64,000 nucleotides of DNA, taken from positions 384,001-448,000 of the forward strand of contig OZ243938.1 in NCBI GenBank assembly GCA_965214095.1, read 5' to 3'. Both the position numbers and the translations under genes were made by a program. Numbering within the stretch: the first letter of the stretch is position 1; each line of letters starts with the position of its first letter. Shown one piece after another: positions 29,307-32,688 of the stretch. Origin of the DNA: Candidatus Poribacteria bacterium. GTDB taxonomy: Bacteria > Poribacteria > WGA-4E > WGA-3G. The notes beneath the pieces are model-generated. The model did no database searches and was not told the DNA's origin. It saw nothing but the letters and a program-made list of their open reading frames with translations.

Positions 29307-29438
29307 CTAATGTTCTGTCTACACTTATCTTGTAGGTCGGGTAGAGGCACGAAACCCAACATGCAGCCATTTATCATCAATAAAGGCGGGTGTCGTCCCT
29401 CTACCCGACCTACAAGATAAGAATGGACACTCCACTAG
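29307..29438. mobile_element. REP doublet in a CTARTG...CACTAG shell
   Basis: Perfect 24-bp IR CTTATCTTGTAGGTCGGGTAGAGG (29324) / CCTCTACCCGACCTACAAGATAAG (to 29421); outer end overlaps the DUF1080 stop codon. Confidence 0.75.
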
Positions 29439-30055
29439 TATTGATCAGAACCATCATGTGGAAGCGGTACTGCCCAAATATTCTGATACCGAACTAAATT
29501 TCCGTGGTCTTGTAGACGTAGTGGACCAGGTTTCGCAGCATCGGAATCACTACCTCCACCTATGCCGGGTAACTGGACGTTATTTAGAATTACCAATCCA
29601 TTCTGTATGGCAGTAACTCTGACGTTTTCAATCATGTCACCAGCATCGTTGAAGCGAGGAGCACGGAAGATAACGTCATAAGACTGCCAATGAAGTGGTG
29701 GATTACAAGCGTTAACAAGAGGAGCGAATTGATTGTATATGGCACCACAATCGCCTTTACCCGGCACATCAATACCGTAGGAATCGAGTACCTGTATTTC
29801 ATACCTTCCTTGGAGAAAAACGCCACTATTACCTTTTGCCTGTCCACTTGCTTCGGGCATATCAGGACACATAAATTCAACATGTAGGAAATGATCAGTG
29901 AAAGTTTCTTTACTGGAAATGTCACCGGTGCGTGGTTCAACAATCATCGCGCCATCTTCGACTTTCCATTTCGGTTCACCGTCACGTCCTGTCCAATTAC
30001 TAAGGTCTTTTCCATCAAAGAGAATCACAGCGGATTCTGGGGGTGTTTGTAACAT
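29435..30055 (-). CDS. DUF1080 (3-keto-disaccharide hydrolase family) protein
   Basis: LFDGKDL, GNSGVF, YEIQVLD, LQDHG. Confidence 0.88.
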   Translation of the reverse strand: MLQTPPESAVILFDGKDLSNWTGRDGEPKWKVEDGAMIVEPRTGDISSKETFTDHFLHVEFMCPDMPEASGQAKGNSGVFLQGRYEIQVLDSYGIDVPGKGDCGAIYNQFAPLVNACNPPLHWQSYDVIFRAPRFNDAGDMIENVRVTAIQNGLVILNNVQLPGIGGGSDSDAAKPGPLRLQDHGNLVRYQNIWAVPLPHDGSDQY

Positions 30056-30085
30056 AAGTTTTCCTTTCTAATGCTATACATTTAT

Positions 30086-30656
30086 TTGACATACTCCCCC
30101 AACTAAAGCAGGGGGATTCTTTTGTCCCTCTGCACTGGGTAAATTCTGCGATCTACAGTGAATGCGAATGCCAGCAAAATATATTACCTTTATCCGTCTT
30201 CCATCACCTACTGCACTGGACGATGCCCCGCCCATTCACCTGTCACAGATTTTCACCTGCTTTAGATGGCAAGATTCTTTTTTGTGAAGTGGCACTGCTT
30301 CACCCGAAACAGTTCATTGTTGTCCTTCCTACCAGACACCCCGACACAACAAGAGATGACTTACTTCTCTTGGGGGTCTTTTATACAATATGTTTACTCG
30401 CTCCTTTTGAGAGTTCGCTATTTAGCGACTTTGGTAACGCATATCGCAGATATGTGCTGCATATCAACCCGCTCACGTATTCCAGTTCACATTCGACTGG
30501 CATGATATGGATGCTCTCCACCAACTTGCATGGCTAACGATGTAGTATTACATCTAATCTTTCGTTGGGCAGTCAGTGATACCCTGCACATGTTTTAGTC
30601 CTTAGTGGTGTCTACATCCCCGTGCTAAAGCATCGGGGTCTTGACACCGAAGATTG
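30086..30656 (-). mobile_element. Non-autonomous IS200/IS605-family element, no tnpA/tnpB
   Basis: Minus strand: TTAT|CAATCTTCGGTGTCAAGACCCCGATGCTTTAGCACGGGGATGTAGACACC (left-end hairpin) and GAATCCCCCTGCTTTAGTTGGGGGAGTATGTCAA| (right end). Confidence 0.8.
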
Positions 30657-30696
30657 ATAATTTATCCTCTGTATTATGACTTGAGGATTTCTTGCA

Positions 30697-30725
30697 ATTT
30701 TAACGATGTTCGTCTTTTTTGTCAA
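30697..30725 (-). promoter_or_regulatory. sigma70-type promoter firing into the IS605-type element and DUF1080 gene
   Basis: Minus strand TTGACA-17 nt-TAAAAT. Confidence 0.65.
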
Positions 30726-30773: not shown

Positions 30774-32414
30774 TCAGACTTGTTGAGATACTTTCTCAGC
30801 CAATCGTATAAGTGCGGGTGACATGTCAGTTTTTTCTAGTTCTGCCTCAATCAAGACAAAATGTTTCGTATCGGCAAGAGCAGATTTCATGGCAGTGTCA
30901 AATTCACCTTCTGTCCGAACAGCAAACGCGCGTCCTGATCCTAACAGTTCTGGAAAATTAGTGTAACGCCAATTTACTATATCATTAAAAGGTCCTTCAC
31001 CGAGAGGACGGATGGTTCCGTATCCATAGTTGTTGAGAACAAGGACGATGGGGTTCAGACCGTAGCGAATGGCCGTAGATAGTTCAGTACCTGTCATTTG
31101 GAAAGCACCATCACCGACAATAACAAGTGGCCTGGAATCAGGATTGCTGAGTTGTGCTCCAACAGCAGCAGGAATTGCAAATCCCATTGAGGTATAGTAT
31201 GCCTGAGAGATAAAGTCGGTGTGTTCTGGCAGACGTAAATCCGATGCACCCCAAAGGCAGTCACCAACATCGGGGATTACTGTCAAGTCATCACACAGAA
31301 ATTGATTGAGATGTTGGAATAGACGTTTAACAGTTAATGCTTGCTCGGGTTCCATAACAAACGGTTCTGCTACTTCCAAGACCCATTCCAAATTTGCTTC
31401 GGGGTGTTTCTTAAGTTGAGGAGAACACAAACCATCCATAAAATCGGCTAACGTAACATCTTCATACGTAGAGTAACAGACGGTTATTTTATCAGATGAA
31501 GCATAGACACTACGACTGCGCGCGAGGTTTGCAGTGTAAATTCCAAGGTTGACATCGGTCATAAATGCACCGAGAATTATCAGACAATCAGAGGTTTCAA
31601 CAAGGGTTGTGATCTCCGTTCTACCCATTGCACCGCCATAAATACCCAAATAGAGCGGATGTGCCTCTGGCATCACCGATTTTCCCAACAACGTTGTTAC
31701 AACTGGAATCTGTTTTTCTTCGGCAAGACGAAGTAATTTATCCTGAAATCTGTATCTATGCAGCTCAGCACCAGCTAAAATGACCGGATTGTTGGATTGA
31801 TTGATAAAGTCAATCGCATTAGATAGGGCAGCATCCAACGTTTCAGCGTCACTCTGGTGTCTACCCGTTGAAGGACGTTGGTGAACTGCTCCTTGAGCCG
31901 CTACCATATCGCGTGGTAATTCAATATATCCGGGTCGTTTGTGCCAATAAACTTCGTCCAACACTCTGTCAATTTCGTTGAAGGCGGTGAAAGGATCATC
32001 AAGTAGTGTTGATGCGACAGTGATCTCTTCATAGATACGTTGCTGCGTGAAAAAATCTTTCCCTTTATGGTGTAATAAAGCTCCCTCGGTACGTTCTTTG
32101 ATACCTGGACTTCCGCTAATCACAACAAGCGGAGATTTCTCAGCGTATGCAGCGGTTACGGCGTTTATCATAGATAAACCACCGACACCATACGTAACAC
32201 ACGCAGCACCCATGCCATTTGTTCTTGCATAAGCATCTGCTGCGAACCCAGCAGTTTCTTCTCGCGTTGTGCCAATCTGTTGAATAGGACTCTGCTCAAT
32301 CAAATCAAAGAACTGCACTACATAATCGCCTGGTAAACCGAAAATGTGATTGATTTCGTAACTCTTCAGTTTTTTCAGAAGGTACTGACCAATTGTTAAC
32401 TGTTCATTTAACAT
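30774..32414 (-). CDS. TPP-dependent alpha-keto acid (pyruvate/indolepyruvate) decarboxylase family
   Basis: IFGLPGDY, AADAYAR, GDGAFQMT...NN; start re-assigned to MLNEQLTIG. Confidence 0.9.
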   Translation of the reverse strand: MLNEQLTIGQYLLKKLKSYEINHIFGLPGDYVVQFFDLIEQSPIQQIGTTREETAGFAADAYARTNGMGAACVTYGVGGLSMINAVTAAYAEKSPLVVISGSPGIKERTEGALLHHKGKDFFTQQRIYEEITVASTLLDDPFTAFNEIDRVLDEVYWHKRPGYIELPRDMVAAQGAVHQRPSTGRHQSDAETLDAALSNAIDFINQSNNPVILAGAELHRYRFQDKLLRLAEEKQIPVVTTLLGKSVMPEAHPLYLGIYGGAMGRTEITTLVETSDCLIILGAFMTDVNLGIYTANLARSRSVYASSDKITVCYSTYEDVTLADFMDGLCSPQLKKHPEANLEWVLEVAEPFVMEPEQALTVKRLFQHLNQFLCDDLTVIPDVGDCLWGASDLRLPEHTDFISQAYYTSMGFAIPAAVGAQLSNPDSRPLVIVGDGAFQMTGTELSTAIRYGLNPIVLVLNNYGYGTIRPLGEGPFNDIVNWRYTNFPELLGSGRAFAVRTEGEFDTAMKSALADTKHFVLIEAELEKTDMSPALIRLAEKVSQQV

Positions 32415-32522
32415 AATATTTCCTGTAACAACGCGTGGCAGCAGATCTTCAAAGAATGGTATTGCTCTACTAAACAATATCGTGAGCTCAAATGAATGAG
32501 TATACGGTAGAACTTTATGAGT

Positions 32523-32688
32523 TATAGTGAAATGTAAGAATACGTGCACACTCTTCGGTAGATGCGGTTTCCTAACCAAGGCAGAATGCCATAAGCGCAT
32601 TCTGCCTGACTATGAAACTGAACAAACACCGGTTCGGTTAGGAAACCGAACCTACCGTAGTCCGTAAATAATTATGAATTCTACTATA
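32523..32688. mobile_element. TATAGT-shell MITE with REP doublet (inverted relative of 24086-24291)
   Basis: TATAGTGAAAT...ATTCTACTATA; CGGTAGATGCGGTTTCCTAACC and GGTTCGGTTAGGAAACCGAACCTACCG; extra AGGCAGAATGC..GCATTCTGCCT hairpin. Confidence 0.8.

Follow-up and report, generated by a model that had tools for sequence, protein, structure and literature searches.

A protein-less IS200/IS605 derivative in a sponge-symbiont Poribacteria genome carries a putative omegaRNA and an additional conserved RNA module

We analysed a 64,000-nucleotide stretch of DNA from the sponge symbiont Candidatus Poribacteria bacterium (the window; C1:384001-448000 of the genome labelled G000), in which a protein-less element of 571 bp, derived from insertion sequences (IS) of the IS200/IS605 group, occupies positions 30086-30656 of the minus strand and ends in ...GGGGGAGTATGTCAA. 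Coordinates refer to the window unless prefixed. The element is probably a non-autonomous palindrome-associated or miniature inverted-repeat transposable element (PATE/MITE) in which a putative omegaRNA at the right end is preceded by an extra structured RNA module, the module acting as a cis-acting accessory of the co-transcribed omegaRNA. We give this reading as a whole a probability of roughly 60%. Transcription, the use of TnpB and TnpA in trans and the function of the module are inferred from sequence, and the particular role assigned to the module is the weakest step; we prefer it to the alternatives, but by itself hold it to be somewhat less likely than not.

The element belongs to a family, here called type A, that is mobile. 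A first-pass annotation had placed a 571-bp element directly after TTAT, and these boundaries were confirmed at 30086-30656 by an exact empty site in the relative G021, whose orthologous flank (95.5% identical) reads ...AAATTAT/ATAAATGTATAGC, the slash marking the junction; the junction TTAT/ATAAATG shows no target duplication. The search for further copies that the annotation had suggested also returned them: G000 has another full-length copy, 90% identical (C1:2836271-2836829), and one shortened by deletion (C1:2714070-2714355), and in the relative G032 the 571-bp element is present at least 16 times (96-99% identity). The interior of the element is present in 12 of 40 genomes of the genus. 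TTAT lies directly 5' of all 14 type A copies examined, 12 of which have both ends (544-577 nt), and one of the 14 sites is inside an open reading frame (ORF). At L065 (G032:C4:1145499-1148967) a 99%-identical copy splits, in frame and in sense, an ORF named by eye from its translation as Rpn/YhgA-like (PD-(D/E)XK transposase-like). Solo left-end hairpins, 95-97% identical and with no element attached, occur at C1:1616942-1616999, 3857604-3857661 and 4996825-4996882, with GTAG after the stem.

An element fills the site upstream of the PF06439 gene in G000, G032 and G022, whereas the site is empty in the closer relative G021. The occupying copies of G000/G032 and of G022 are only 86% identical, their left-end stem sequences differ, and an AT dinucleotide sets their flanks apart. 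The shared site could have arisen by separate insertions at the same TTAT, or by one old insertion that was later lost precisely in some genomes. Public reads were available as contigs only, from four runs of which three are RNA, and all expression and junction observations come from these. In run X19, an RNA-library contig of an about 6%-diverged strain joins 30085 to 30657 and skips exactly 571 nt. Because G021 has the empty site as DNA, this joined form can be explained by empty-site genomes.

On the minus strand the order is promoter (30725-30697), about 35 nt, TTAT, element, ATAAATGTATAGCATT, ribosome-binding site (RBS) and ATG. The features are listed below; IS-A is the resident TnpB-carrying IS and type B a sister family, both described further on.

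30697-30725, minus strand: host promoter TTGACA-17-TAAAAT, 11 of 12 consensus matches, outside the element
30657-30660, minus strand: target site TTAT, also the transposon-associated motif (TAM) of TnpB, abutting the left end; it precedes type A copies and the resident TnpB IS
30086-30656, minus strand: type A PATE/MITE, whole 571 bp, delimited by copies, the empty site and the joined contig
30600-30656, minus strand: left end, a nested imperfect palindrome GGTGTC..GACACC around CCCCG..CGGGG with loop TGCTTTAGCA, 93-97% identical to the left end of IS-A
30482-30584, minus strand: 5' domain of the module with hairpins H1-H4, covarying, better conserved across types A and B than any other part (75-78% identity)
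30374-30470, minus strand: helix H5 (GGGUU/GACCC, 94% paired) and a type-A-specific insertion holding H6, H7 and the invariant CUCUCAAAAGGAGCG
30282-30372, minus strand: module core with H8 and a junction closed by UUGUG/CACAA, which holds H11 (loop UGGUAGGAAG) and H12 (ACUGUUU/AAGCAGU), with compensatory changes; type B shows here a long-range helix and a 4-bp helix that crosses it
30237-30281, minus strand: A-rich linker and hairpin H13/H14 (CAUCU..AGGUG around CAG..CUG; helices 20-21), type-A-specific
30086-30236, minus strand: putative omegaRNA scaffold with the right-end hairpin TCCCCC..GGGGGA (30095-30116) and terminal GTATGTCAA, aligning with the 3' end of IS-A
30070-30085, minus strand: predicted 16-nt guide ATAAATGTATAGCATT in the host flank, assigned by position; with TTAT it rebuilds the G021 empty site
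29435-30055, minus strand: host gene of 206 aa, PF06439 (3-keto-disaccharide hydrolase, formerly DUF1080; E 5e-39), with its RBS about 18 nt past the element

The module lies between the left end and the omegaRNA, measures about 320 nt here (30282-30599) and is absent from IS-A. Single-sequence folding gave z = -2.9, with none of 100 shuffles folding as well, so that the annotation's concern that the interior might fold no better than shuffled controls did not materialise; the module is, moreover, multi-copy and covarying. Covariation was scored on 11 diverged type A copies with a 116-pair structure, using slid partners and 500 shuffles as controls, and on a cross-family set of 39 distinct rows of type A and type B modules with 58 model pairs and slid controls. 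Among the type A copies 91.3% of cells were paired, against 37-47% when slid, and 51 of the 116 pairs were double-changed (10-13 slid, 17.9 +/- 2.9 shuffled; 0 of 500 shuffles reached 51). Across families the corresponding values were 94.5% (35-42% slid) and 41 of 58 pairs (13-16 slid). The structures were derived from the same sequences in which the pairs were counted, and alignment A3 was fitted to the model, which inflates the pairing percentages.

A long-range helix joins UAUAAAGUUG of the 5' domain to the 3' edge of the core, CGAC.UU., and all seven of its pairs are double-changed. A further 4-bp helix, read by eye on type B copies and standing outside the pair-counting statistics, is paired as UCGC/GCGA, CCGC/GCGG or CCAC/GUGG in 23 of 23 copies, the 24th (L165) having given no 5' strand. 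Since it crosses the long-range helix, the module has an apparent pseudoknot. G-U cells outnumber A-C cells (274 vs 35), which assigns the fold to the sense strand, and several positions are near-invariant as G-U. H5 reads GGAUU/AAUCC in G009 and is a plain hairpin, GGAGG/CCUCC, in type B; the TAGCG hairpin loop would allow an sso-like reading (an ssoA CS-6-like motif); at its position type A copies read GAGCA or GAGCG. Of the hairpins that had been drawn on the single sequence, GATGTA/TACATC with its outer stem, CCAGT/ACTGG, GATATG/CATATC, TCGCT/AGCGA and CAAGAGA/TCTCTTG covary among the 11 copies and were retained. Three others gave way to competing helices: the outer stem AGACCCC/GGGGTGTCT to a covarying GACCC-GGGUU helix, GTGAAG/CTTCAC to ACUGUUU/AAGCAGU, and GGTAA..ATTTTGC/GCAGAAT-TTACC to other covarying pairings. 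Taken together, the comparisons argue that the module is a conserved structured RNA domain under clear structural selection at the level of the element.

Translated searches found no protein gene in the element. With tblastx against its own genome it matched other copies only, and tblastn with the resident TnpB on the element aligned the last 18-35 residues only, weakly (E 0.3-0.6). The absence of a tnpA- or tnpB-like ORF was correctly seen from the sequence, and a decayed tnpB or tnpA interior, which had been named as a possible pitfall, left no coding remnant beyond the tnpB C-terminus. On the opposite strand, 9 of 11 type A copies have an open frame of 85-149 codons (in the window 30088-30534, plus strand, 149 codons), with a shared stretch ...LDGKILFCEVALLHPKQF... 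An antisense protein was considered and rejected: the frame shifts on both sides of the shared stretch, has no common start and is closed in G009 and G020. Variable columns per codon position number 35/29/23, with no third-position excess, and a Pfam search with a cutoff of E 1 gave the frame no match. The most conserved RNA helices fall on the shared stretch, and the antisense frame is a by-product of conserved RNA sequence.

Comparison with the 4227 families of Rfam 15 at permissive thresholds (the window copy up to E 10, and five type B loci) returned only a sub-threshold HgcC match and chance microRNA and leader matches. It gave no group I or group II intron, small ribozyme, HEARO or riboswitch match; for the Intron_gpI core there was none at E up to 10 on the window copy or at E up to 1 on the five type B loci. 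The termini read ...GTCAA in type A and ...ATGAC in type B and so end in A or C, with no terminal G, and no group I-like internal guide complementary to the TAM was obvious by eye. A literature search on Poribacteria and TnpB, which did not cover preprint supplements, found no such module family in print. The first-pass suggestion of an undescribed large non-coding RNA holds, on sequence grounds, for the remaining 320-360 nt or so, which are not decayed tnpA or tnpB, covary and match no Rfam family. The module is absent from Rfam 15; the shell with an orphan omegaRNA is of an already known kind, and the extra RNA domain is new.

The ends of the element and its last 150 nt point to a TnpB-carrying parent. 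G000 holds three copies of a 1.43-kb TnpB-only IS, IS-A, likewise located after TTAT, whose left and right ends match those of the element (57 nt at 93-97% and 72 nt at 79%, respectively). Its TnpB of 386 aa, encoded for example at C1:2317197-2318354, matches PF01385/OrfB_IS605 (E 2e-23) and the Cas12f1-like TNB domain PF07282 (E 1e-18), with RuvC D/E/D and zinc-finger motifs present. Both ends of the element are subterminal imperfect palindromes on one strand and both covary (helices 1, 2 and 26), the left-end stem reading for example GGUGUC/GACACC vs CCGUUC/GAACGG. The last 145 nt or so of the element align with the last 145 nt or so of IS-A, that is with codons for ...KVGASTFGVEGIRLASASTPC and a stop, a spacer and the right-end hairpin. 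An omegaRNA stem shows the compensatory series GGGCG/CGUCC, GGGCA/UGUCC and GGUAG/CUACC, and helices 22-24 are 100% paired in the 11 type A copies with 9 of 15 pairs double-changed. Because of this homology with the IS-A 3' end and right end, we regard the last 150 nt or so as what is probably a complete omegaRNA scaffold, one that would need TnpB in trans. The flank ATAAATGTATAGCATT after TTAT is the exact empty-site target, which makes an orphan omegaRNA served in trans the natural reading; the annotation had proposed as much, and its proposal holds as far as sequence can carry it. In Rfam this part matched HgcC (RF00062) weakly (18.2 bits, E 0.07-0.2, gathering score 50), a family linked, in the accessible text of PMC4615843, to RNAs from the 3' end of IS1341-type tnpB.

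Candidate trans factors are present. G000 encodes 22 TnpB-type matches and four intact Y1 tnpA genes, the latter in four IS605-type units (C1:80511-81976, 2168924-2170389, 2384494-2385962 and 4230081-4231549) that each set a 141-aa Y1 tnpA beside a 421-aa tnpB; their right-end hairpin (AATCCCAATGCCTTTAGGCTTGGGTAGTTGAA) has the same design as that of the MITE. IS-A TnpB, at an identity of at least 82%, is found in 6 of the 10 genomes holding type A elements, and G032, with the highest element copy number, has at least 10 intact IS-A tnpB genes.

The module is not confined to type A. Type B elements are about 440 nt long with a module of about 230 nt, are flanked by TTTAA or TTAAC and end in ...TATGAC; they share the 5' domain (75-78% identity) and the core architecture with type A. 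Their last 125 nt or so are homologous to another TnpB IS, IS-B (C1:2066622-2067989), which is also without the module. The module is thus common to two MITE families that differ in ends, TAMs and omegaRNAs. G000 has type B copies at C1:1047956-1048360 and at C1:3142095-3142545 (L010:1393-1843), the latter between rpsA and metK and co-oriented with both. L109 (G032 contig 4, 1491310-1495798) holds one element of each type in tandem on the same strand, with their 5' domains 468 nt apart. In two type B copies, L049 (G019 C23) and L155 (G131), the omegaRNA region is interrupted by about 100-150 nt of inserted sequence, which in L155 holds short CAGTT(T/A)C-type repeats.

A covariance model built from 15 type B modules picked up those of type A, with E about 1e-23, and further ones in a second genus. 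Applied to 151 sampled genomes of the phylum, it found the module in 26, all of one Poribacteria family: 16 of 37 genomes of genus g1, plus G000, and 9 of 57 of genus g9; none of the 51 genomes searched in other families had it. The 26 genomes together contain more than 100 copies. Each of 12 further loci that were inspected has an A-rich linker, the omegaRNA and the right end after the module, and 11 of them have a left-end hairpin upstream, L165 having none. Among the loci inspected no module copy came with a protein gene, and scanning 185,579 species genomes for exact matches to a 21-mer from the 5' domain revealed no protein-coding parent with the module; 28 of the 29 loci found lay in Poribacteria metagenome-assembled genomes and one was a chance match in a GC-rich coding region.

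The insertions have a consistent relation to host genes. The window copy is flanked by minus-strand genes for a thiamine pyrophosphate (TPP) enzyme (30774-32600) and for the 206-aa PF06439/DUF1080 protein (29435-30055). A strong promoter had been ascribed to the element: the motif is as good as described, 11 of 12 matches at 30725-30697, but comparison of orthologous sites shows it kept in relatives without the element, so it is the host gene's own, and the element appears to sit in the 5' untranslated region (5' UTR) of the PF06439 gene, downstream of that gene's promoter. No own-strand promoter-like or terminator-like site was found inside the element. Insertions are typically located 15-250 nt upstream of a start codon, in sense; by crude ORF calling, 28 of 34 copies share their strand with the downstream ORF and 30 of 35 with the upstream ORF. 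The neighbouring genes are unrelated (metK, clpX-like, moxR-like, minD-like, PF06439). Six of 16 type B elements (L084, L092, L102, L106, L107 and L108) begin precisely where the upstream ORF has its stop codon; as TAA is part of the type B flank TTTAA, the target motif would steer insertions to gene ends, in sense.

On these grounds we propose that the element is a passenger of host transcription, since it has no promoter or terminator of its own and its copies are co-oriented with neighbouring ORFs. It would be read through from host promoters, here from that of the PF06439 gene, and the transcript would pass the right end into host DNA, so that the next 16 nt become the guide and the product consists of module, omegaRNA and flank. 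IS-A TnpB would take up this RNA and cleave the unoccupied allele, TTAT plus ATAAATGTATAGCATT, with the result that the copy is retained, as extrapolated from published TnpB homing. The left and right ends would form the subterminal hairpins used by a Y1 TnpA that is supplied from elsewhere in the genome and moves the element DNA. The module, with its multi-helix sense-strand fold, long-range closing helix and apparent pseudoknot, might stabilise or protect the omegaRNA precursor or define its 5' end, and might insulate the host mRNA and its 5' UTR from the inserted RNA.

Several observations weigh against this proposal. G000 also contains a simple omegaRNA PATE without the module (C1:3131657-3132070, minus strand, 413 bp; same left-end type, AT-rich interior, type-B-like omegaRNA and right end), and the module is therefore not needed for an omegaRNA as such; in a G020 variant (L044) an AT-rich stretch with TTGATA-17-TATAAT takes the place of the 5' domain. 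In 4 of the 10 type A genomes (G009, G010, G020 and G024) no close IS-A TnpB was found with this query. The left end of the TnpA-carrying IS605 copies differs from that of the element; they are at most candidates for cross-mobilising it. The agreement in strand with neighbouring genes might arise because IS200/IS605 elements insert into the lagging-strand template; the position and strand of 13 G022 copies fit a two-replichore pattern only loosely (judged by eye, the origin location not being given). The RNA data are contigs of a multi-copy element, for which DNA carry-over is possible, and the flanks have zero cover in two of the three RNA runs (X15 and X16). In two studies a contig ends at 30236, which may hint at an omegaRNA 5' end or may equally reflect assemblies breaking at a site polymorphic among copies.

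The strongest competitor to the proposed omegaRNA accessory, though still an unlikely one, is that the module is an undescribed kind of ribozyme, capable of self-splicing or self-cleavage, which removes the element from transcripts in the "stealth" manner of IStrons or trims the omegaRNA. The layout of left end, structured RNA, omegaRNA and right end equals that of IStrons, and ORF-less IStrons are described in the accessible text of Tourasse et al. 2014 (PMC4227781) and Zedaveinyte et al. (10.1101/2023.11.20.567912). Most copies are in transcribed positions in sense orientation, one G032 copy interrupts the Rpn/YhgA-like ORF in frame, and the closed fold with invariant junction nucleotides and a pseudoknot would suit a catalyst. 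On the other hand, even at E up to 10 the module matched no group I or II intron and no known self-cleaver, the elements end in A or C instead of the group I terminal G, a single type A site in 14 is inside an ORF, and the sole joined form in RNA can be accounted for by empty-site genomes. If the ribozyme reading were true, the IStron strategy would have been invented twice, the second time independently and with an RNA that has no relation to group I introns.

Slightly less probable is co-option of the module as a mobile 5'-UTR or intercistronic regulatory RNA, that is a sensor or an element of stability or translation, kept by selection at the level of the host. The usual position upstream of start codons in sense would agree with such a leader, as would the occupation of the PF06439 site in G000, G032 and G022 by copies only 86% identical. 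It sits poorly with the unrelated identity of the neighbouring genes, the transposon dynamics evident in the 16 near-identical recent copies of G032, close relatives such as G021 that do without the insertion, and the lack of a riboswitch family match.

We consider it rather improbable, more so than the regulatory leader, that the fold acts in the excised single-stranded DNA (ssDNA), compacting the interior so that the left end meets the right end and TnpA excision or integration is raised. IS200/IS605 elements such as IS608 and ISDra2 excise their top strand as ssDNA; the structured strand is this top strand, and the two sides of the module meet through the long-range helix. Yet many of the conserved pairs are G-U (274 cells) and would be weak as G-T in DNA, the invariant unpaired stretches and the pseudoknot point to RNA tertiary structure, and compaction alone needs no conserved sequence. 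Finally, a coding interior, whether decayed or specifying a small protein on the opposite strand, has the frame open in 9 of 11 copies in its favour but is largely refuted and very improbable given the shifts and closures of that frame, its codon-position pattern, its lack of a Pfam match and the absence of translated similarity beyond the tnpB C-terminus.

Whatever its role, the module serves a selfish element that relies on the host for its transcription and on other loci for nuclease and transposase. The usual RNA cargo of protein-less IS200/IS605 elements is the omegaRNA alone, and here an additional domain is under clear structural selection in two sister families. With about 40 diverged sequences and a covariation-supported fold, the module is a candidate new class of structured RNA, and 571 bp plus one TnpB make a compact, testable system in which to ask what else a guide-RNA transposon needs from RNA.

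The closest known relatives of the element can be compared part by part. The last 150 nt or so share with HgcC, TnpB omegaRNAs and sense overlapping transcript RNAs (sotRNAs) their position, their homology to the tnpB 3' end and a terminal hairpin that is also the right-end palindrome; they differ in scoring 18 bits against an HgcC gathering score of 50 and in overlapping no tnpB ORF here. The element as a whole resembles PATEs, for which the accessible texts describe omegaRNAs used in trans in Geobacillus stearothermophilus (Meers et al., 10.1101/2023.03.14.532601) and a PATE-derived RNA in haloarchaea (Gomes-Filho et al., PMC4615843). As in those accounts, it has no protein genes, shares its left-end and right-end hairpins with a TnpB-carrying IS of the same genome, is inserted after a fixed tetranucleotide without duplication, carries the omegaRNA at its right end with the guide in the flank, and would need TnpA and TnpB in trans. 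The PATEs described there are short, consisting of ends and omegaRNA and sometimes a promoter, whereas here there is an extra covarying domain of 230-320 nt, which is absent from the parental TnpB IS and present in two MITE families whose ends, TAMs and omegaRNAs are not the same. IStrons, which combine a group I intron with an IS200/IS605 or IS607 element, are described in the available accounts with the same order of left end, large structured RNA, transposase genes (in full-length members), omegaRNA and right end, and likewise stand in sense in transcribed DNA. The Poribacteria elements differ from them in that no group I core was detected, there is no terminal G and no evidence of splicing, the 5' flanks of type B do not end in U, and the insertions are mostly intergenic. 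The group I intron of IStrons is the only described parallel to the module.

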